64,000 nucleotides of DNA. It comes from a virus. The notes beneath the pieces are model-generated. The model saw only the letters and a program-made list of their open reading frames with translations, was not told the origin of the DNA and ran no database searches. How positions within the stretch are numbered: position 1 is the first letter of the stretch; the number at the start of each line of letters is the position of its first letter. The translations under genes and the position numbers were made by a program. Below, in pieces: positions 14,400-23,367 of the stretch. The stretch spans positions 1 through 64,000 of the IMG/VR virus record IMGVR_UViG_3300030098_004740; one strand, given 5' to 3'.

Positions 14400-14801
14400 A
14401 TGATGGAAGACTCATATGCCGAACTTGTTAGGAAATCGGAAAAATACAAAACCGATAAAACTAATAAGTACAAAGAGGTCTCGAAAGATAGGCTTCTTAA
14501 AATATCAAAAAAGAAGATACAAACCACGATGATTGGTGCATTAAGTACTATTGAAAAACATTTTGGTTTTTTATGGGGTCACGAAAGTGGTGAAGCGTTA
14601 ACTCCCGAACAGGAGCATGTGAAACAACTTTTTGATGAAGTAAGGTCGGAGATACTTGATAGGGGTAATAATCAAGCTCGCAATTTAGAAGCCGAGTTTA
14701 ATCATTACGAAATTAATTGGTTAAGATACCAAATTACATTACCTGTTAAAGATATCGCAACTATAAAGGAAGAAGAAAATGGCGAAGAGCAAGAGAATTA
14801 A
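14400..14801 (+). CDS. Hypothetical protein
   Basis: 133-aa ORF with RBS AAGGAGG. Confidence 0.6.
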   Translation: MMEDSYAELVRKSEKYKTDKTNKYKEVSKDRLLKISKKKIQTTMIGALSTIEKHFGFLWGHESGEALTPEQEHVKQLFDEVRSEILDRGNNQARNLEAEFNHYEINWLRYQITLPVKDIATIKEEENGEEQEN

Positions 14802-15729
14802 GATTTCATCTACGGACTTGAATGGCGAAGAAAAAGAAGTATACATTCAACTTCCAAGCGCAGAAGAAAATAAACAAGCACAGCTTGCATATAATAGAGC
14901 TTTTAAAGAAGCACTTCAATCAGGAGCAATCTTGAGACAAAAGCTTCAAAAAGTGATGAATGAGCAAGGGATATGGGATGACGACAAAGAAAAGCAATAC
15001 CAAGCTATTCTAGAAGAAATCAATGAAGGTGAAAAGACTCTTAGCAGAGGTGGTATATCACTGACTGAAGCTAGGAGCATAGCTCTCCAAATGAGAAGAA
15101 AACGAGTTGAGTTCAGATCATTAATTGCCGAAAGAAGTTCGATGGACAGCAATAGTGCTGAAGGTCAAGCTGACAATGAAAGATTTTCTCATCTTGTATA
15201 CATTTGTTTAAGAAACGCAAACGGTAAAAATCTTTTCAAAACAAAAGAAGATTACGAAGAAAATGCTAATCAGCCATATGTTGTAGAAGCTGCTGGACAA
15301 CTAGCAGAAAAACTTTATGGATTAGATCCTGATTACGACAGAAATCTTCCTGAAAATAAATTCCTAGAAGCATACAAATTTAGTGATGAAGCTACTAGAT
15401 TGATTAATAAAGATGGTCATCTAATTGACATTGATAAAGATGGCAATGAAAGGCTTATTGATGAAAATGGTAGATATATTGCTTATGACGACGAAGGTGA
15501 ATCCTACTTCATTGACAAAGATGGTGAAAAATTAAACGAAGCTGGAGATTACGAAACTGAGTTTACTCCATTTTTAGATGATGCGGGGAAACCTGTAGAA
15601 GTCCCTTCTGAAAAAGAAGAAGAAGAAGAAGAAACTGCTGAGGAAGAAGCTGTAGAGGCAGAAGAGTCTAAGCCTACTACAAAAAGGAGAACGACCAAAA
15701 GGTCAACTACGAAAGCTAAAACCGAATAG
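14779..15729 (+). CDS. Hypothetical protein (possible tail assembly chaperone) with DxDG repeats and acidic then basic tail
   Basis: Directly upstream of the TMP; DKDG/DENG/DDEG repeats; EEEEEETAEEE then KRRTTKR. Confidence 0.45.
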   Translation: MAKSKRIKISSTDLNGEEKEVYIQLPSAEENKQAQLAYNRAFKEALQSGAILRQKLQKVMNEQGIWDDDKEKQYQAILEEINEGEKTLSRGGISLTEARSIALQMRRKRVEFRSLIAERSSMDSNSAEGQADNERFSHLVYICLRNANGKNLFKTKEDYEENANQPYVVEAAGQLAEKLYGLDPDYDRNLPENKFLEAYKFSDEATRLINKDGHLIDIDKDGNERLIDENGRYIAYDDEGESYFIDKDGEKLNEAGDYETEFTPFLDDAGKPVEVPSEKEEEEEETAEEEAVEAEESKPTTKRRTTKRSTTKAKTE

Positions 15730-15798: not shown

Positions 15799-18700
15799 AT
15801 GGCTGGCAATTTCAACATAACAGCACAGATACACCTGCAAGCGCCTAACGCAAAACAGTTTTCTAGAAATTTGCAAAAACAATTGCAAAATCCTAACATC
15901 AAGGTAAATTTGCAAGGCGCGCCTAAAACCGTAAAGGATCTTAACAATGTAGTTAAAGCTACTAAAGACGTTGAGAAAGCTAGCAGAAGTGCTGGTAAGG
16001 GTGCTGACTATATGGGTCGTCAGCTTGGAAGTGCTTTCAAGCAAATCATGAAATACGACATCGCTCGTCGTGTTTTTTCTCTTTTTGCAAACTCTATTGA
16101 ACAAGGCGTGAGAGATGCTATTGCTTTTGAACGAGCTATGGTAAAAGTTGCTCAAGTCAGCGGAGCAAGCGCGAGAGAAATGAAGGCGTTGACAAAAGAA
16201 ATCACTAACGTTTCTAAACAATTTGGAGTCAGTTCTCAAACTTTAGCTAGAACAAGTTTGATTCTTAAACAAACAGGTCTCTCTATGAGAGACACTAAGG
16301 TAGCGATGGAGGCTTTAGCTAAAACAGAATTAGCTCCTACGTTTGATAACATTGCTGATACAGCTGAAATGGCTGTTGCCGCGATGAGGCAGTTTGGATT
16401 GGAAGCTAGCAAACTTGAAGGTCTATTAGGTAAGATCAATACTGTCGCCGGAAACTTTGCTGTTGAGTCTTCTGATATTGGTGTCGCTATTAGGCGTACT
16501 GGTGGCGCGTTTAAAGCTGCCGGTGGTGAAATAGAAGAACTCATAGCCCTATTTACGTCTGTTCGTGCTACTACTCGTGAAACTGCTGAGACTATTGCTA
16601 CTGGTTTTAGAACTATTTTTACCAGACTGCAACGGCCAACAACTATTAAATTCTTGCGGCAATTTGGAATTGAACTTACAGACCTTGACGGTAAGTTTGT
16701 CGGCCCTTACAAAGCAGTCGAAAGACTTCATGGAGCATTAAAAAACCTAGACCCTCAAGACCTAAGATATTCAATGATCGTTGAACAACTTGGTGGGTTC
16801 CGTCAAGTCTCTAAGGTCATCCCGTTAATACAACAATTTGGCACTGCTCAAGCTGCGTTAAATGCACAACAAGCTGAAAGCGGAAGCTTAGCATCAGATG
16901 CTGCTAAAGCACAAGCGACTCTCGCTGTTCAAATGCAGAAACTAACTGAACAGGTAAAAGAACTGTTTCGTGAAATAGTTGGATCTGACTCTTTCCAAAT
17001 GATGGCAAAAGGAGCATTTGCTCTTGCTGAAGGCATTATCAAAGTAGGGAAGGCTCTTGCTCCAGTCATACCACTAATAACAGCCATGGCCGGTATGAAG
17101 ATGGCTGGCTGGGCTATGGGAAGTATGAAGATGTTTGGAGGCCGTGGACTAAACCAATCTCTTGGTACTATGGGAGGCACAGGCGGTCCGGGCTTTTACA
17201 ATCGTGGTGGTCGTGTACGTAGATTTAGTAGAGGTGGCTGGGTTCCGGGATCTGGTAATGGTGATACTGTACCTGCATTACTAGAGCCGGGAGAATTCGT
17301 ATTACGTAAATCTGCTGCTCAGGCTTTTGGCCCACAACTGGCTTCTGTTAATAGATATGGCAATGGCACTCGTGGTTCTTCAGGTGTAGACCCTGATGGT
17401 ATGTCAGCTTCTTCGTCTCCAGTATTATCAAGAGCTTTATTCCAAGGCGTACATGATGGTGATAGTTACCGAATACATGGAATACCTTCACAACAGAAAT
17501 GGAATACAACCACTAGACTTGACGGAGGGGTAGATGCTTATGAAATAAGAAATATGTCTTCTTCTGGTCCAGTGTGGGGTCCGAGAGAGAAGCAGTTGGG
17601 AGATTTAGCCAAGGCGATGGCAGAGAGTCACGCCTCAAAAATTAAAAAAGGTCAAGACATCATAGGAATGTTTGGGAATGTAGACCCAAAGAAGAAAGAA
17701 AAATATGGAAGACCTTTGATGACAGACCCTACCTTGGCCGATTCTTTGCTACAGGCTGGTCTTGGAGAAACTGACAAAGCTACAGGCACTCTAGAACAAA
17801 GAGTCATGAAATATGCTCAAGGAAGAACTAGAGCAGGAATAAATTCTGGTCCCGCTGGAAGTCTTTATCAACAATGGGTAGCTGAAGAAAGACAAAAACT
17901 TGAACAAGAAAACAAAATGGCTTCTGGAGGTTTGGTTCCTTCCCTTCTAACCCCCGGAGAATTCGTAGTTAACAAGAAGTCAGCTCAAAGATTTGGTTAT
18001 GGCAAGCTATCTAAGATGAATAGATATGCTGGCGGTGGAGCTGTTCGTAGATACGCTAATGGTACTGGTGGCGCTGGCGTTCTTCCTATGGGTATGGGCG
18101 GCGGAGGAATGTTCGGAGGAATGATGATGCAGCTGGGCATGATGGAAGGCATGTTCGGCAAAGTAGGTAAAGCTGGACTTGGAGCTTTTAATGGATTAAC
18201 CAACGTTGCTGCTGGAGCAACAATGGCCTATGCAAAATTTTCTATGGTAACCCAAAGTGTTGGCGCTGCTGCACAAATGTTTGGCCTTCAAAGCGAAGCT
18301 GTTACAGCCTTCATTGATAGACTCTCTATGGTTGGTGGAGTTATAAGTTCGCTTTCTTCTGTTGCTCAAAATCCAGCAACTCAAGCTGCATTTAGCCATG
18401 CTATTGACTGGGCTGTGAATGGTTTGATGCTCTTTGGCGGCAAGCTAAAAAACTTAGGAAAAGCCATGGGAGGAAAAATCGGCACCGCAGTTAGCAGTGC
18501 TGGTGGCAGGGTAAGTGGTTCGGCAGCACATGTTGCTAAGGGCGGACGCCATGCTAAAGAAATGTATCAAGGAATATTCCAAAGAGGCCAAACAAAAGCA
18601 TTTCGGGACAAGGTACTCAAAAGGCAAGAACATTACAAAGGCGTCGCAGCAAGTAAAACCAAAGCTGCTGGCCATGCAACAAGAAACATGGGAGAGTTGG

Positions 18701-21700
18701 GTCAAAAACTTTCTGCATCACAGGCTCAAGGCGCAAAAATAGATGCTGATATTCTAAAAAATAAACAAAGTATATTAAAAAGCACAGATGACATAGCTAA
18801 GGCAGAAAAAAGTTATACCGCTTTAGCTAATGCAAAAGCAAGAAATGAAGCCACAAGAATAGCTGCAAATAGGCGAGTTTCTGAGATAGGAGAAGGTTTC
18901 CCTAAGCTATTGAAAAAAGAAAAACATGCTTATGAAACTGGATTAAAAATACAAGAAAAACTTAATGCAGCGAGAACGCGCCTCAGTGAAAGTGGAGCTA
19001 AGTTTGCCGAGGGTCAAGCTGACTTTAAAGCTGGTAAATACATAAAAGATGGTGGAACTGCCGGTGAGTCCTCATTGAAAAGATCTGGCAAAGGCAAAAT
19101 GGAGTATTGGGGACGAAAAGCGGCTCTTGATCAAGCAGAAATTAAAAAGCTTGAGGAAGCGATGGCGGCTAATGCTAAGAGGCAAGCATCGTATACTAAG
19201 AGAATTGGCGATGCTGAAGCCACAGTAAACAAGTTGACAAATACACAACGCAGCATGATAAATAAAAATGCTGCACTAGATGGTGCGCTTGATTCTCAAA
19301 TGGCTGCTAGAAATGCGGCATCTAATACTTTAAATGCTCAACAAAAAGCTGCGAAAGAGCTTGCTGAAGAGTCAAGTAGAGCTGCTGCACAAAGCGCCAA
19401 GTATGCTGACAAAATGGATGGAGCAGCAAAAGCTGCTGCCAGTCTAGGCGACGACGCTGCAAAAGCTGGAACAAAAGCAGCCAAGCTTGGTAAAATAGCT
19501 ACAAAAAGTGGACAAATATTAGCAAAAGGTAGTAGAGCTATAGCAACCATGGGGATTTCCCTAGTTGTTGAAGAGACTATTGCTGCGGTTGGAAGATCTA
19601 TGACGGACGTTGCTATGACGCAGATCAAAGATGCTGGCGGTAGGATGTCAGAAGAAGATGCAGCAGTCGCAGAAGAAGATGCAGCTAGAGGTGGCTTGGT
19701 AAGCGGAGCAGCTACTGGTGCTGGTATTGGTTTTGCCATAGGTGCGCTTACAGGACCACTAGCTCCTATACTAGCTCCAGTATTTGGCGCAGTTGGAGCT
19801 GTAGTTGGTGGATTATGGGGTTGGTTTGCCGCTGCTGAAGAAGCTAGAGAAGCTATCGAACGTGCTAACTTTGATAGAGCATCAGCAGATATGACAGACG
19901 CCATGAAAAAATTTGGTGAAGGAACAGCAACTGCGTCCTTTGCAGTAGAGCAAATAGCAGAAATGCAGAGAGTTGAACAAGGAATCAAAGACTATGGTGT
20001 TAGTTTAGATGAAGTTTATGGTAGCCGAATTGAACAAAGAAAAAATGCTTCCACTATACTCAGCGCACAAGCTCAAAGCGCAATGTCTGAACAAGACTTT
20101 AAAAATGATCCTGCTATTAAAAGGCTTCAAGAATTAGGTCTAGTCACCCAAAAACAAGTCGATGAAGGCTTAAAAGTTGTTGAAGCAAACATGAAAGCCA
20201 GAGCAGCATTAGAAGCTGAATTAGAAGCTAGAAAAGCTTCAAATAGAGAGCTTAGAAAAGTAGCTGGTATTGTAGGCGCAATGGAAGAAGCATCTAATAG
20301 GCTTTCCACATTTGGCGCTTCAATAGAAAACATTGCAACTCCGGGAAGTGGAGGAATAGGAAAAACTGCTGATCTGTTCAAAAATGCAGGATCCAGTAAA
20401 CAAGGTACTGCAAACTTTAACAGTGCTATAGATATGTTTTCAAACATTGCTGGTGGAAATACGCTAGAAGGCTTTGGTAAAAAAGCAAAAGACGCACAAT
20501 TTGTAAATGCAAATATAGAAGATATATTGACTAGATCTGGTATGTCTGGTGGATTAGACCCAGAAAATATGCAGTCAATTATAATGGATGATTTGAAAAG
20601 AACTGCTAAAGAAGAAGGTGCGGCTCTAGGACCTTACATGGAAAAAAGAATGAAAAATATGATAGACAGCATAAGTGAAGATGACTTAGCTGATCTAGAA
20701 AATAAAGCACCAGAAATAGCAGCAAAATTTAAAGAAGATCAAGATAGATTTTTAGCAGTATTTCAAAAAGGAGCAGAACTCCTAGATCAATATACATCAG
20801 AATTGGAAGCTGCTTATAATGCTCAATTAAAACTTGAGCAAGAATACGTTAAGAGACAGCAGTCTTTGATGAACGCTAGATTTTCTTCTGACGAAAAGTT
20901 TCGTCAAAATCTAAGCGCTAGTGCTTTTTCAGGCACAAGCAATGCTGACATTCAAGCAAACTTCTTAGCTAACCAACAAATGCTTGTTAGCGGATCTGGC
21001 GGGATTGGCGGAATGAGCGCTGCTAGGCAAGCCTCTCTTAACGCAGCTGGTGGTGTTGGGAATGTTAATGCGGTAGGTGCGACGTTCAAACAAATTAGTG
21101 AAGATCTCAGAGCAAACCAACAGCAATTGATAAGTCAAGGTTTAGACCCAGCAGCCTTGGAACAGACAGGAGCAGCTGGCGGCTTAGCTGACGAACAACA
21201 AAAACTTATAGAAAAGAACAAAGAGCTTAGGGGAGAGTACGAGGCAGCGAAACAGGTTCTTGAAAACTACGCAAACTCTCAAGAAAGACTGACTGCTCTT
21301 AATAGAGAATTAGAACAAGCCCAACAAAAACGCAAGTCTCTTAAAGATCTTGCTGTGCAAGCTAGGTATGGAACTGCCGAAGAAAAAGATCAAGCTGCTC
21401 GTTTGATTAACGCTATCACTATTGCCTCTCAGCAAGGCATTGATGCTGTAGCTCCAGAACTTCAAAGGCAGGTTGTTGGATACCTTCCACAACTTATGGG
21501 CGCTCAAGGTGAGTCCATAGTTAACCAAGGCATAAACGATGCCTTTGGTGGTGGTCAAGGGATAGCTGGAATTACAGAAGTGAGCGCAGAAGAAAGGCGA
21601 CTCGCTACGGAAATAAAAGCTATAGAAGACGCAGGTATAACCGCTGGAGAGCATCTCGCAGAAGAAGTTGGTGACAGAATTGGAGAAATGGCCGACAAAA

Positions 21701-23367
21701 TTGCTGAGCTTAATAAAAACTTTGTCATAGATTTAAGAACTCTGTTCTTAGAGGAAGAATCAAAACAAGCAAAAGCAGATCAAAGAACCGCAGAAGCAAA
21801 AATAGCAGGAGCTGACAAAACAAGAGAGAAATTAAAAGAGTTTGGAATAGAAGGTACTGTTGATGCACAGGGAAATCTTTCTTATAGCGAAGAAGATCAA
21901 GTCGCTCTCAACAATTTAAGAATGTTGGGTGATCTAGCTATGGAAATGGAAAAACAAGAAAAAGCCACCTCTGCTTTGGGAGGCGTTGATCTTAAAGCAG
22001 AACAGGCAAAACTAGAAGGTTCAGGCTGGGTTATGGATCATCTTGCTTCAGGGACAAGTTCTAATATCTACAAAGCTCTAGGCATTACAAAAGACGAGTT
22101 TCTAGCTGGCATGGGCGGAAATGTTGGTGGTGACAACTGGAATGTAGAAAACTACGACGATGCCGATATGGACGCCATGAAAGTCGTGATTGATAAAATG
22201 GGTGTTAAGTTCGCTGAAATGGGCGGCGATATTAACATGTTTGAATCAGAAGCGATGCGTTTGATTAAACATGCGGCAGAGAATGATCTAGAAGGCCAAG
22301 ACGTACTTCAACCTTTATTCCAAATGTTAGCTGACAGGCAGTCATCAGCTAAGATACAGGGCGATGCCAGAATGAAAGAGTTAGAAGGAAAAGTTTCTCC
22401 AGAAGTTCTTGAAAAGATGAAAAGCATGACTGCCGAAGAAAGAACAGAGTACGCAAGAAAAGCAGGAGTAGCGGCTGAGGTTGGAGATTTGGACACGTTT
22501 GCTAGTGAAAGAAATCAATCCTATAAAGACTTAGCAGATGCTAAAGAATCTTTGAAGACAGTCAAAGATAAGCAAACAAAACTAACGGATGAAGCAACTA
22601 AGAGAGGTAGTATCTTTACTCATGATATTTATCTAGAAAGAATACTTCTGAATATTCTTACGGTTCTTGAAGGCGAAGGAAGAAGTGTAGATTTGCTTCC
22701 TACCAACCTAAATCCTTTAGCGGCTGCTGGTGGTGGTGGTGGTGGTAAAGGAGCTGTTCCGGGCTTCATGAAGAAGTTTGGAGGCAGTAGCTTAACAGAC
22801 TTTGCTAACATGGGCGACGAAGAGAAGCAAAAAATGCTCTCCATGTTAAGTAAAGATAGCTCAATATCAAGCGCAATGAAAGCAGAAATCACAGGAGCAG
22901 CTGGTGGACTACCTTCAATGTTTGCTGCTGACAAAATGCTTTCAAGCCCATTGACTGATGGAAGTCTTGAGGGAATAGACATGGCTAGCACAATGAAAAA
23001 AGCTATAGACAGTTTAAGCGAAGGAACGGCGGCAGCAGCTGTGACCAAAGTAGCACAAGATGCTCTTGCTGAAATGGGCGTTAATGAAACCGCAGAGCTA
23101 TTCTCGAAACATATAGAAGAGTTTTCATCAGCTATGGGTAACCCATTAAGCATTGAAGTGGGCGGAAGTATAGAAGTTAATGTTAATATGAATGGGGCAG
23201 ACTTCTTGAAGAATGCAGAAGGTGCATTAGCAGAAATTGCAGGAAGTGAAGCCTCTAAAGCAATAAATAACTTTATTCAACAAATGAATAAGAGTAGTAA
23301 TGTAAAACCAAATCCTCAAGGCTGGCATCAGTCAGGCCAACCTAAACCTTTGACAGGAAACGGATAA
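15799..23367 (+). CDS. Tail tape measure protein (TP901-like N-terminal domain) with embedded SNase-like domain
   Basis: FERAMVKVAQVSG..INTVAGNFAVESSD..ETIATGFRTIFTRL TMP core; Ala/Gly/Lys-rich coiled coil; hydrophobic GxxxG segments; 2522 aa. Confidence 0.92.
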   Translation: MAGNFNITAQIHLQAPNAKQFSRNLQKQLQNPNIKVNLQGAPKTVKDLNNVVKATKDVEKASRSAGKGADYMGRQLGSAFKQIMKYDIARRVFSLFANSIEQGVRDAIAFERAMVKVAQVSGASAREMKALTKEITNVSKQFGVSSQTLARTSLILKQTGLSMRDTKVAMEALAKTELAPTFDNIADTAEMAVAAMRQFGLEASKLEGLLGKINTVAGNFAVESSDIGVAIRRTGGAFKAAGGEIEELIALFTSVRATTRETAETIATGFRTIFTRLQRPTTIKFLRQFGIELTDLDGKFVGPYKAVERLHGALKNLDPQDLRYSMIVEQLGGFRQVSKVIPLIQQFGTAQAALNAQQAESGSLASDAAKAQATLAVQMQKLTEQVKELFREIVGSDSFQMMAKGAFALAEGIIKVGKALAPVIPLITAMAGMKMAGWAMGSMKMFGGRGLNQSLGTMGGTGGPGFYNRGGRVRRFSRGGWVPGSGNGDTVPALLEPGEFVLRKSAAQAFGPQLASVNRYGNGTRGSSGVDPDGMSASSSPVLSRALFQGVHDGDSYRIHGIPSQQKWNTTTRLDGGVDAYEIRNMSSSGPVWGPREKQLGDLAKAMAESHASKIKKGQDIIGMFGNVDPKKKEKYGRPLMTDPTLADSLLQAGLGETDKATGTLEQRVMKYAQGRTRAGINSGPAGSLYQQWVAEERQKLEQENKMASGGLVPSLLTPGEFVVNKKSAQRFGYGKLSKMNRYAGGGAVRRYANGTGGAGVLPMGMGGGGMFGGMMMQLGMMEGMFGKVGKAGLGAFNGLTNVAAGATMAYAKFSMVTQSVGAAAQMFGLQSEAVTAFIDRLSMVGGVISSLSSVAQNPATQAAFSHAIDWAVNGLMLFGGKLKNLGKAMGGKIGTAVSSAGGRVSGSAAHVAKGGRHAKEMYQGIFQRGQTKAFRDKVLKRQEHYKGVAASKTKAAGHATRNMGELGQKLSASQAQGAKIDADILKNKQSILKSTDDIAKAEKSYTALANAKARNEATRIAANRRVSEIGEGFPKLLKKEKHAYETGLKIQEKLNAARTRLSESGAKFAEGQADFKAGKYIKDGGTAGESSLKRSGKGKMEYWGRKAALDQAEIKKLEEAMAANAKRQASYTKRIGDAEATVNKLTNTQRSMINKNAALDGALDSQMAARNAASNTLNAQQKAAKELAEESSRAAAQSAKYADKMDGAAKAAASLGDDAAKAGTKAAKLGKIATKSGQILAKGSRAIATMGISLVVEETIAAVGRSMTDVAMTQIKDAGGRMSEEDAAVAEEDAARGGLVSGAATGAGIGFAIGALTGPLAPILAPVFGAVGAVVGGLWGWFAAAEEAREAIERANFDRASADMTDAMKKFGEGTATASFAVEQIAEMQRVEQGIKDYGVSLDEVYGSRIEQRKNASTILSAQAQSAMSEQDFKNDPAIKRLQELGLVTQKQVDEGLKVVEANMKARAALEAELEARKASNRELRKVAGIVGAMEEASNRLSTFGASIENIATPGSGGIGKTADLFKNAGSSKQGTANFNSAIDMFSNIAGGNTLEGFGKKAKDAQFVNANIEDILTRSGMSGGLDPENMQSIIMDDLKRTAKEEGAALGPYMEKRMKNMIDSISEDDLADLENKAPEIAAKFKEDQDRFLAVFQKGAELLDQYTSELEAAYNAQLKLEQEYVKRQQSLMNARFSSDEKFRQNLSASAFSGTSNADIQANFLANQQMLVSGSGGIGGMSAARQASLNAAGGVGNVNAVGATFKQISEDLRANQQQLISQGLDPAALEQTGAAGGLADEQQKLIEKNKELRGEYEAAKQVLENYANSQERLTALNRELEQAQQKRKSLKDLAVQARYGTAEEKDQAARLINAITIASQQGIDAVAPELQRQVVGYLPQLMGAQGESIVNQGINDAFGGGQGIAGITEVSAEERRLATEIKAIEDAGITAGEHLAEEVGDRIGEMADKIAELNKNFVIDLRTLFLEEESKQAKADQRTAEAKIAGADKTREKLKEFGIEGTVDAQGNLSYSEEDQVALNNLRMLGDLAMEMEKQEKATSALGGVDLKAEQAKLEGSGWVMDHLASGTSSNIYKALGITKDEFLAGMGGNVGGDNWNVENYDDADMDAMKVVIDKMGVKFAEMGGDINMFESEAMRLIKHAAENDLEGQDVLQPLFQMLADRQSSAKIQGDARMKELEGKVSPEVLEKMKSMTAEERTEYARKAGVAAEVGDLDTFASERNQSYKDLADAKESLKTVKDKQTKLTDEATKRGSIFTHDIYLERILLNILTVLEGEGRSVDLLPTNLNPLAAAGGGGGGKGAVPGFMKKFGGSSLTDFANMGDEEKQKMLSMLSKDSSISSAMKAEITGAAGGLPSMFAADKMLSSPLTDGSLEGIDMASTMKKAIDSLSEGTAAAAVTKVAQDALAEMGVNETAELFSKHIEEFSSAMGNPLSIEVGGSIEVNVNMNGADFLKNAEGALAEIAGSEASKAINNFIQQMNKSSNVKPNPQGWHQSGQPKPLTGNG
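17431..17775 (+). other. Staphylococcal nuclease (thermonuclease)-like domain within the TMP
   Basis: VHDGDSYRI..TRLDGGVDAYE..GDLAK..EKYGRPL..LLQAGLG. Confidence 0.75.

Follow-up and report, generated by a model that had tools for sequence, protein, structure and literature searches.

A fenced, exchangeable nuclease-like cassette in the tape measure protein of an uncultured marine phage

Tape measure proteins (TMPs) are usually viewed as rulers and channel formers, at most equipped with a cell-wall hydrolase. The stretch of DNA analysed here (64,000 nucleotides, positions 1 to 64,000 of IMG/VR record IMGVR_UViG_3300030098_004740; hereafter the window) comes from an uncultured marine phage whose relatives are uncultured metagenomic contigs, mostly marine, and it encodes a giant TMP in which two copies of a short motif bracket an enzyme-like domain. 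Is this domain a fixed part of the protein or the present occupant of an exchangeable slot, and what would a phage tail do with it? The original prediction took the duplicated motif for a processing signal and/or recombination anchor around swappable cargo, in the manner of a polymorphic toxin. The features concerned are as follows.

15799..23367, + strand: TMP gene, 2522 aa (PF10145 PhageMin_Tail and PHROG tape-measure families)
17011..17121, + strand: hydrophobic stretch (aa 405-441, by Kyte-Doolittle), followed by a Gly-rich linker to copy 1
17212..17376, + strand: motif copy 1 (aa 472-526, by motif HMM), with YNRGG and FSRGG boxes, GWVPGSGNGDTVPALLEPGEFV core, helix and NRYGNG box
17377..17904, + strand: variable cassette (aa 527-702, 176 aa) of the SNase-like family F1, delimited by the drop in identity to relatives
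17422..17862, + strand: predicted staphylococcal-nuclease (SNase)-like fold (aa 542-688, by AlphaFold2 and VIA-align), with DGD, R..D.E and YGR
17905..18060, + strand: motif copy 2 (aa 703-754, by motif HMM), with MASGG box, LVPSLLTPGEFV core, helix, and YAGGG and YANG boxes
18052..18144, + strand: uncharged Gly/Met-rich stretch after copy 2 (aa 752-782, by residue composition)

The carrier is recognizable as a TMP by several lines of evidence. PF10145 (PhageMin_Tail) matches aa 133-330 with E 4e-28 and 99 bits, against a Pfam gathering cut-off of 33.2 (105 bits in the search of the protein's own record), six PHROG tape-measure families match it, and its homologues bear the source-given name "TP901 family phage tail tape measure protein". 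In most 100-aa blocks 30-58% of the residues are A, E, K, Q or L, and two overlapping ORFs directly 5' of the gene (14400-14801 and 14779-15729) form a candidate chaperone pair. Hydrophobic stretches lie at aa 405-441 (Kyte-Doolittle mean up to 1.63 over 19 aa) and 1298-1347, while aa 752-782 comprise 31 consecutive residues without D, E, K or R. Neither Pfam nor PHROGs places a peptidase family in the protein. The phage GenBank collection contains no close relative of this TMP; only the module is matched there, in the T4-like cyanophages S-SM2, P-TIM68 and Bellamy and in Gordonia phage Clawz.

The repeated element is a module of about 55 aa, in which aromatic-x-x-G-G boxes stand on either side of a ..VPA.L.PGEFV.. 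core that is followed by a short helix. Both copies predicted from the letters are present in the TMP frame, with small shifts of their ends: copy 1 (FSRGGWVPGSGNGDTVPALLEPGEFVLRKSAAQAFG..VNRYGNG) spans aa 476-526 (17224-17376), the end given earlier (17365) being about 11 nt short, and copy 2 (MASGGLVPSLLTPGEFVVNKKSAQRFG..MNRYAGGG) spans aa 703-747 (17905-18039), the earlier start (17917) being 12 nt late. The motif HMM finds them with E 1.7e-21 and 1.8e-18, and a profile built from 73 copies of other phages (A3) with E 6e-20 and 7e-17; the 73-copy profile detects no third copy in the six frames of the window. BLASTP aligns the two copies directly, with 51% identity over 39 aa (E 4e-11), and the additional (F/Y)xxGG units that had been proposed to flank them are real, a second HSP pairing YNRGGRVRRFSRG with YAGGGAVRRYANG (E 0.028). 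The longest exact DNA match between the copies is 12 nt, and the copy 1 and copy 2 positions differ in length across relatives. The duplication is therefore old, and a recent one is ruled out, with merely 12 identical nucleotides in a row. In the monomer AlphaFold2 model the copies fold at low confidence (pLDDT below 50-60), and the module is not represented by a Pfam family.

This module is general and not particular to the window phage, being present in 1-11 copies in hundreds of giant TMPs. It is matched in 4085 representative proteins at E<=1e-3, with 2-10 matched stretches per protein among the best 150 module matches, and merging gives 1-10 copies in 307 of the 349 sampled proteins. The statement that single copies are common in TMPs thus holds, but multiple copies, up to 11, are common as well. 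Among TMP chains of solved tails, the module profile finds Douge gp16 twice (E 7e-19) and JBD30 (E 0.015); Douge and Gordonia phage Clawz TMPs have two copies each. The region is not resolved in the solved tails (PMC13033339; PMC12617516). Phage lambda gpH contains one copy at aa 732-784 (HFATGGF..GIVHRGEFVFTKEATSRIG..GYATGGYV; E 0.0025 in the PDB search, 1e-7 in a direct scan).

Between the two copies in the window lies a domain that is SNase-like by fold and active-site pattern, and for which nuclease activity is predicted. The single-sequence AlphaFold2 model was unusable (pLDDT 41), and a model from an alignment of 31 relatives, with domain pLDDT of about 90, was used instead. Its Foldseek match to staphylococcal nuclease has E 7e-5, and the top 50 matches are all SNase; VIA-align superposes 113 of 135 residues on SNase residues 8-141 (Z 9.6, rmsd 3.4 A, 20-23% identity). 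In the alignment of the 31 relatives (A1, down to ~35% identity), D89, G90, D91, R109, D115 and E118 are invariant and R174 is nearly so. By motif order (DGDT / RLxxxDxPE / YGR) we take these to correspond to SNase D21, R35, D40, E43 and R87. The proposal that a nuclease sits between the copies is thus borne out by fold and active-site pattern, without a family match at the sequence level: Pfam gives no match to the cassette even at E up to 10, SNase PF00565 included, a PHROG endonuclease family reaches only E 0.12, and phmmer against the PDB returns only chance matches to fatty acid synthase. The SNase-like family occurs in 46 of the 349 sampled proteins, in 44 of them directly after copy 1, and in the remaining two starting ~50-65 residues past it.

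When the domains between the PGEFV repeats of homologous TMPs are catalogued, as had been suggested, the content is variable and enzyme-like. ADP-ribosyltransferase domains (PF03496) are found between copies 2 and 3 of P0207, in addition to the first cassette of that protein, and in P0094, where the domain ends at copy 2. At least two further groups show an E..D..(D/E)xK pattern with conserved E, D and K, a conservation that is complete or almost complete in the largest non-SNase cassette family; family F4 has DAA in place of (D/E)xK, so the lysine is missing. A loose regular expression for the pattern matches 117 of 182 cassettes, compared with 63 +/- 6 in shuffles. These cassettes may be restriction-endonuclease-like, which we treat as a lead only, suggested by the residue pattern and by Atlas language-model neighbours (Tox-REase-7, -9, -3, -5 and -2) with values of 0.81-0.87, below 0.9. 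The F0 cassette has only an unnamed viral cluster as Atlas neighbour (0.75), and searches of relatives' cassettes with Pfam, PHROGs and the PDB profiles A2 and A4 gave no usable match. The window TMP has one cassette, and two kinds are present in P0207 and in P0007/L004, the latter combining an SNase-like domain with an E..D..DxK domain in the same protein.

Exchange of this content is directly visible among close relatives. The P0004 protein is 90% identical to the window TMP over aa 8-523, has no similarity to it in the insert, and is 46% identical beyond. In six relatives from a metagenome scan whose N-termini are 81-94% identical (L081-L086), the cassettes belong to F4, F8, F2, F2, F8 and F1, i.e. 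to four families. At the DNA level, identity to these relatives is ~85-94% until the last residues of copy 1 and ~26-51% across the insert, about that of unrelated sequence, and similarity restarts at the GG that opens copy 2; to the codon, the exchange junctions are ..NRY of copy 1 and GGLVPS of copy 2, both in the aromatic-x-x-G-G boxes. Cassette families were defined by clustering with 50% mutual coverage and by hhalign, in which F1 scores at most 0.3% against every other family and is unrelated to them (single-linkage clustering of the first intervals, which placed 221 of 307 in one cluster, was rejected as a chaining artefact). On a tree of the N-terminal part, the 13 cassette families need 31 changes (minimum 12, shuffled ~71), with F1, F8, F4 and F2 interleaved among the 15 tips nearest the window. 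None of 282 first intervals is shorter than 80 aa, i.e. the first slot is never empty. Close relatives therefore swap unrelated cassettes exactly at the motif boundaries, and the swappable-slot reading is largely supported. Recombination anchoring by the motif copies would look the same as functional conservation on either side of a variable segment, and the 1.4-kb N-terminal part is as good a homology arm as the motif copies.

No cassette-linked immunity-like or inhibitor ORF adjoins the TMP gene in the window, L084 or L085. The next gene begins immediately past the TMP stop codon, and on both sides of the TMP the neighbouring genes keep a collinear order between the window (F1), L084 (F2) and L085 (F8); this constancy despite the different cassettes rules out an adjacent immunity gene. 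A shared-word search, covering the SNase-like cassette, found no stand-alone donors of 96-308 aa.

The reading we favour, with confidence somewhat above even, is that the TMP contains a fenced, hypervariable enzyme cassette that is carried to the host as an early effector, the module being a conserved TMP junction module of which the window has two old, diverged versions; that the TMP is also cut at the modules is a weaker part of this reading. The tail thus probably brings a rapidly changing enzyme into the host. Three to six cassette copies would sit, as a portion of the TMP, in the fifth of the tail lumen nearest the head, leave the tail with the TMP just before the DNA, and target nucleic acid in the envelope or cytoplasm of the host, in early take-over or counter-defence; conflict with the host would then drive cassette replacement through recombination between co-infecting relatives. 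By analogy with lambda gpH and T5 pb2, the TMP might in addition be cut beside the modules during tail assembly, which would make the cassette a separate piece. We note two points against the effector reading: a folded domain of 17-20 kDa, in three to six copies, must fit a lumen of ~4 nm, and an active nuclease beside replicating phage DNA needs restraint, with no inhibitor gene adjoining the TMP. A more sweeping proposal takes the module for a signal that marks junctions and processing sites in TMPs generally; those of this large uncultured group would be polyproteins cut at each module in the course of tail assembly, much as gpH of lambda is cut shortly ahead of its one copy, and the cassettes would be freed as pre-made effectors that precede the DNA into the host. 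This proposal appears doubtful but worth keeping in mind.

Among the other explanations, one that we consider rather unlikely, though it deserves attention, leaves the cassette unreleased, as a membrane-anchored loop: the flanking stretches (aa 405-441 and 752-869) would enter the inner membrane, the modules would be hinges or turns, and the nuclease would be shown on one face of the DNA conduit, for example to clear competing nucleic acid at the periplasm or channel mouth. Hydrophobic or uncharged stretches do lie on either side of the copy 1 - cassette - copy 2 unit, and in lambda gpH, too, a hydrophobic/Gly-rich stretch precedes the module. Staphylococcal nuclease requires millimolar Ca2+, a need that suits a site in the periplasm or exposed to seawater and would silence the domain in the producing cell. 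TMPs are also thought to form a trans-envelope channel (PMC12617516), and the RNA polymerase of Thermus phage P23-45 gp96 is active while fused to the full-length TMP (PMC10770324). Restriction-endonuclease-like and ADP-ribosyltransferase cassettes, however, would normally act in the cytoplasm, and lambda and T5 cut their TMPs beside comparable elements.

Two further explanations give the cassette no effector role. It might bind DNA without cutting it, holding the leading genome end so that the ejected TMP pulls the DNA in, with the modules as structural nodes of the TMP bundle. The position of the cassette (aa 527-702 of 2522) would be head-proximal if the C-terminus occupies the tip, the arrangement of Douge, lambda and T5. 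In lambda the leading genome end extends into the tail tube, contact between TMP and DNA inside the tail has been discussed for lambda and DT57C (PMC13033339), and the DAA of F4, which lacks the (D/E)xK lysine, is compatible with binding-only versions. Yet 31 sequences, down to ~35% identity, keep the SNase catalytic set unchanged or almost unchanged, as the largest other family does its E, D and K, ADP-ribosyltransferases in equivalent slots have no reason to bind a DNA end, and a conserved task would hardly be expected to drive swaps of unrelated folds among near-identical backbones, all of which makes DNA holding improbable. Least credible, in our judgement, are selfish insertions resembling homing endonucleases, which would spread by cutting cassette-free TMP genes, with the motif copies as their duplicated or conserved target, and be tolerated cargo of no use in infection. 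The majority of cassettes look nuclease-like, the same two places show sharp junctions again and again, and nuclease genes are reportedly found at boundaries of genetic exchange between phages. A homing element, however, needs empty sites and would leave some, and copy 1 adjoins copy 2 in none of the 282 TMPs; moreover, the cassettes are translated in frame with the rest of an essential structural protein and involve neither an intein nor an ORF of their own, ADP-ribosyltransferase cassettes occupy slots of this kind too, both motif copies are old (protein conserved, DNA diverged), and lambda has the module without any cassette.

These results suggest a more active role for TMPs than the usual view allows: in a large, mostly marine and uncultured group of them, near-identical phages exchange the content of a defined slot that is never empty. 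If the cassettes are delivered, as in the favoured effector reading, ready-made enzymes for take-over or counter-defence would have a second way into the host, through the tail lumen in addition to the head, and the slot would be a record of phage-host conflict. If the module is a processing signal, the system would be the tail-lumen counterpart of polymorphic toxins and polyvalent proteins, and would hint at where and how lambda gpH is processed, a question that dates from the 1970s-80s. The fence is homologous to an element at the gpH*/gpHC boundary of lambda, which makes its relation to gpH cutting testable in a tractable model. The module is also a bioinformatic landmark for cargo in TMPs that are blank in Pfam.

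Comparison with lambda is the closest at the level of the module. Like the window TMP, gpH has a hydrophobic/Gly-rich stretch (aa 685-731) followed by the module, and it is processed to gpH* and gpHC, through a cut assigned to about aa 690-730, within the Gly-rich region (PMC12617516); the module starts just past this cut region, at the start of the C-terminal fragment gpHC. The single lambda copy is near the C-terminus and is associated with no cassette, whereas in the window TMP the C-terminal copy is missing and two internal ones enclose an enzyme domain. No cleavage rule can be transferred from lambda, because its cleavage site and protease are not known. T5 pb2, a TMP with an embedded metallopeptidase, is cut after R1127, at a point that separates a hydrophobic stretch from the enzyme domain (PMC10038345). 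No copy of the module is detectable in pb2, and the parallel is one of architecture only; the segment AEGGMMYPG..GEHGTEVV just past the mapped pb2 cleavage site is a look-alike by eye only.

Other TMPs also carry globular enzymes in the tail lumen, including T5 pb2, mycobacteriophage TM4, whose TMP has a peptidoglycan-hydrolase motif (PMC1796659), and Clawz, with an SLT domain. These enzymes attack the cell wall and lie near the C-terminal (tip) end, while the window cargo is nuclease-like, N-proximal and replaced among relatives; the Clawz SLT domain (1531-1617) follows both module copies, in contrast to the window cassette between them. A nearer functional likeness is P23-45 gp96, an N-proximal enzyme of a giant TMP, whose N-terminal RNA polymerase works on phage DNA in the infected cell (PMC10770324). 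Because this polymerase works inside the cell, an enzyme domain can pass through the tail. Nevertheless gp96 carries a different enzyme and is full-length in virions, and fencing motifs or cassette exchange have not been reported for it.

The proposed likeness to polymorphic toxins holds in part. As in MuF toxins (PMC5576092) and in CdiA, whose pre-toxin motif is VENN (Zhang et al. 2012, PMC3482391), a conserved carrier has a short conserved motif before a variable enzymatic module, and modules are exchanged at the motif among close relatives, in the present case four cassette families at the module boxes of backbones that are 81-94% identical. In polymorphic toxins, however, the variable module is C-terminal, an immunity gene is adjacent and a competitor is the target, whereas the window cassette is internal and fenced on both sides, no immunity-like ORF accompanies it, and it is presumed to act on the host of the phage itself. 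The TMP group may also resemble the polyvalent proteins described by Iyer et al. (2017, PMC5512222) in a study that makes no mention of TMPs: large proteins, delivered with the DNA, in which nucleases, ADP-ribosyltransferases and other conflict domains occur in variable combinations. Polyvalent proteins are described as head-packaged or delivered by conjugation, and as cut by an embedded MPTase, in contrast to the window TMP, in which Pfam and PHROGs detect no peptidase and the cassette would travel in the tail.

Translation of 17191-18065 places both of the repeated 'PGEFV' cassettes claimed in the original prediction in frame within the tape measure protein (TMP). The features of this protein and the coordinates of its gene in the window are as follows.

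15799-23367, + strand: TMP gene, one 7.6-kb ORF encoding 2522 aa
TMP aa 405-441: hydrophobic part of a hydrophobic stretch and Gly-rich linker that precede copy 1
17212-17376 (aa 472-526), + strand: motif copy 1
17422-17862 (aa 542-688), + strand: staphylococcal nuclease (SNase)-like domain, by predicted fold
17905-18060 (aa 703-754), + strand: motif copy 2
TMP aa 752-782: uncharged Gly/Met-rich stretch after copy 2
19690-19839 (aa 1298-1347): uncharged glycine-zipper-like hydrophobic segment of 49 residues

The last of these is the strongest membrane-type stretch in the protein, and weak Pfam Gly-zipper matches lie at a comparable position in P0207, a relative TMP. The window TMP carries PF10145 (PhageMin_Tail, aa 133-330, 99 bits against a Pfam cut-off of 33.2), its N-terminal 400-1000 residues are matched by six PHROG tape-measure families, and the source name of many homologues is 'TP901 family phage tail tape measure protein'. 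Two overlapping ORFs directly 5' of the gene (14400-14801 and 14779-15729) are placed like the G/GT tail assembly chaperone pair, which is produced by programmed frameshifting; PHROGs match neither ORF. The virion genes neighbouring the TMP have no PHROG families except for one tail fibre. The parent IMG/VR record is 92.6 kb long, with the window as its first 64 kb and a CheckV completeness of 61%. TARA and other marine metagenomes are the source of many relatives. The phage lineage is poorly known and uncultured.

The two copies share 51% identity over 39 residues (BLASTP, E 4e-11), and a second alignment pairs YNRGGRVRRFSRG with the YAGGGAVRRYANG unit (E 0.028). Scored with a profile built from 73 copies of other phages, they reach E 6e-20 and 7e-17, while no third copy is found by this profile in any frame of the window. 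The module begins with an aromatic-A-x-G-G-x-V box, continues through (G.G..D)-VPA-x-L-x-PGEFV into a short K/A/Q-rich helix ending G...L..xN, and closes with a second aromatic-A-x-G-G-x-V box. The longest exact DNA match between the copies is just 12 nt, and their lengths are consistently unequal across relatives, so the module duplication is old.

When 1.84 billion representative proteins were scanned in full with the 291-aa region spanning both copies, 4085 matched at E<=1e-3; the best 150 of these range from TMP-sized to giant (1026-7872 aa) and have 1-10 matched stretches each. A motif HMM finds module copies in 307 of 349 proteins (IMG/VR loci included), and 2-11 copies per protein (median 4) among the best scan matches; this sample of ~350 is the top of a far larger match list and over-represents proteins related to the query. 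Protein length correlates with copy number (r 0.77), and module spacing is bimodal, at ~100-300 aa and ~1000-1200 aa. In most relatives and in lambda gpH, the last copy lies ~70-130 aa before the C-terminus (~100-130 aa in most relatives); no such C-terminal copy was found in the window TMP (C-terminal part, 20893-23367), which extends 1768 aa beyond its last copy. Solved TMP chains matched by the module profile are mycobacteriophage Douge gp16 (twice, 964-1027 and 1411-1461, E 7e-19), lambda gpH (732-784, E 0.0025) and the JBD30 TMP (1018-1070, E 0.015), and the module region is not resolved in any of the published structures. Gordonia phage Clawz gp56 has two copies. The module has no Pfam family and is a general, often multi-copy TMP element.

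It also occurs in T4-like cyanomyophages (GU071095.1 7695-7826, S-SM2; KM359505.1 7771-7902, P-TIM68; MF351863.1 7801-7938, Bellamy), in proteins annotated as 'bacteriophage-related transmembrane protein' or hypothetical protein, and is therefore not confined to long non-contractile tails. The giant TMPs P0043 and P0046 (7794-7872 aa) carry 9-11 copies, and would give tails of ~1 micrometre if fully extended as a ruler; more likely, cargo makes up much of their length, or the protein is processed into fragments.

The 176-aa insert between the copies receives no name from sequence methods. Alignment of the 291-aa region with 30 TMPs sharing the insert shows invariant D89, G90, D91, R109, D115 and E118, and nearly invariant A116 and R174. 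An AlphaFold2 model based on this alignment, used here to predict the fold of the SNase-like cassette, has pLDDT ~90 for residues 80-245 of the region, and below 50-60 for both motif copies. The top 50 Foldseek matches of the insert model are all SNase (best E 7e-5), and VIA-align superposes it on SNase residues 8-141 with Z 9.6 and rmsd 3.4 A (113 aligned residues, 20-23% identity). The conserved DGD, R..(G)xDAxE and YGR follow the known order of SNase D19/D21, R35/D40/E43 and R87. By predicted fold, the insert is thus an SNase-like domain with its catalytic set intact.

The content of the corresponding slot, the first interval between module copies, was surveyed in 282 distinct TMPs that have two or more copies and whose N-terminus is intact. 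The slot is never empty (shortest interval 89 aa); it measures 80-340 aa in 188 of the TMPs, and BLAST groups the 182 distinct short intervals into 45 families. Of the 349 proteins, 46 contain the SNase-like family F1, directly after copy 1 in 44 and ~50-65 residues later in two. Copy 2 follows immediately in F1 carriers of 2-2.7 kaa, and the next copy is >1000 aa away in those of 3.4-6.4 kaa. The largest family, F0 (72 members, HMM matches in 120 proteins), ends exactly at copy 2; in its pattern G..FE / FDFP / DAK, E and D are invariant and K is nearly so. Families F2, F4, F6, F8 and F11 are interlinked by hhalign (85-96% probability) and share the pattern W-E / P-x-D / (D/E)-A-(K/R); F1 is unrelated to every other family (at most 0.3%). 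The E..D..(D/E)xK order in F0 and in this linked group suggests putative nucleases of the restriction-endonuclease fold; these cassettes have no match in Pfam, PHROGs or PDB profile searches. Language-model features place an F2 cassette nearest the Tox-REase-7, -9, -3, -5 and -2 clusters (0.81-0.87), which serves as a lead only.

Other relatives carry PF03496 ADP-ribosyltransferase domains, at 923-1135 of P0207 between copies at 813-872 and 1142-1201, and at 1278-1442 of P0094, ending at a copy at 1451. In P0207 this is the second fenced slot, the first holding a different cassette. P0202 has a PF03496 exoenzyme domain at aa 1067-1276. In some giant relatives (L004 / P0007), an SNase-like domain right after copy 1 (aa 657-800) and an E..D..DxK domain before copy 2 (about 1568-1720) share one long first interval.

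Exchange of the cassette is evident among close relatives. Over aa 8-523, P0004 and the window TMP share 90% identity; their inserts show no detectable similarity, and identity beyond the insert is 46%. Scanning metagenomes with the N-terminal 526 aa gave six contigs, 81-94% identical there, from which the DNA-level junctions derive: L081 carries F4, L082 and L085 carry F8, L083 and L084 carry F2, and L086 carries a diverged F1. Codon-by-codon nucleotide identity to L081-L085, the five closer relatives, is ~85-94% through the copy 1 core, ~26-51% over aa 527-702, near the level of unrelated sequence, and 61-86% in copy 2. Resolved to single codons, the left junction follows ..QLASVNRY, within the distal aromatic-x-x-G-G box of copy 1, and similarity restarts with the GG of copy 2's proximal box, ..GGLVPSLLTPGEFV. 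Over its first half, copy 2 has 71-89% amino-acid identity but only 25-57% third-position identity; this half is therefore kept by protein-level selection and not by recent common descent. On a FastTree tree of the 460-aa region N-terminal of copy 1, 31 changes are required for the 13 cassette families with at least three members (minimum 12, shuffled labels ~71), and F1, F8, F4 and F2 are interleaved among the 15 tips nearest the window; thus cassette type is partly inherited and often replaced. The slot is conserved, never empty, fenced by two old module copies, and its content is exchanged at the module boxes. Further downstream in L081, nucleotide identity alternates between 85-90% and ~60%; the remainder of the TMP is also mosaic, and exchange is not confined to the slot.

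The relatives are all metagenomic, their TMPs and cassettes being known from sequence. The frequent replacement of cassettes points to conflict with host functions. The SNase-like domain, being part of the TMP, probably rides in the lumen of the tail, and would exit with the TMP ahead of the DNA and act on host nucleic acid; in P23-45, the gp96 RNA polymerase, an N-proximal TMP domain, reaches and works inside the cell (PMC10770324). In lambda gpH, a hydrophobic/Gly-rich stretch (685-731) is followed by the module, in the same order as at copy 1 of the window, and gpH is cut into gpH* and gpHC in the Gly-rich region just before the module (PMC12617516), so the module start is the gpHC start. 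In T5 pb2, the cut lies after R1127 and separates a hydrophobic stretch from the metallopeptidase (PMC10038345); no module is detected in this protein by profile. The AEGGMMYPGVSYQMGEHGTEVV that follows this cut (L091, the T5 pb2 locus, aa 1124-1150) resembles by eye the GG..PG...GE..V layout, below profile detection. By analogy with gpH and pb2, cleavage beside each module is plausible. The same anatomy fits a cassette that stays uncleaved as a loop anchored in the membrane by an inserted segment on each side, as the unit is flanked by the hydrophobic stretch at aa 405-441 and the uncharged Gly/Met-rich stretch at aa 752-782.

The polymorphic-toxin-like system of the original prediction is borne out in the cassette exchange at module boxes among close relatives, and not in the immunity gene that marks polymorphic toxins: no cassette-linked immunity gene was found, as relatives carrying other cassettes are collinear with the window in their flanks, and the next gene begins right after the TMP stop. 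No description of module-fenced nuclease or ADP-ribosyltransferase cassettes in TMPs was found in the searchable literature, and the polyvalent-protein paper makes no mention of TMPs (PMC5512222). Related systems already described include cell-wall hydrolases embedded in TMPs (PMC1796659, PMC10038345), an RNA polymerase fused to one TMP (PMC10770324), polyvalent proteins (PMC5512222) and phage MuF polymorphic toxins (PMC5576092).
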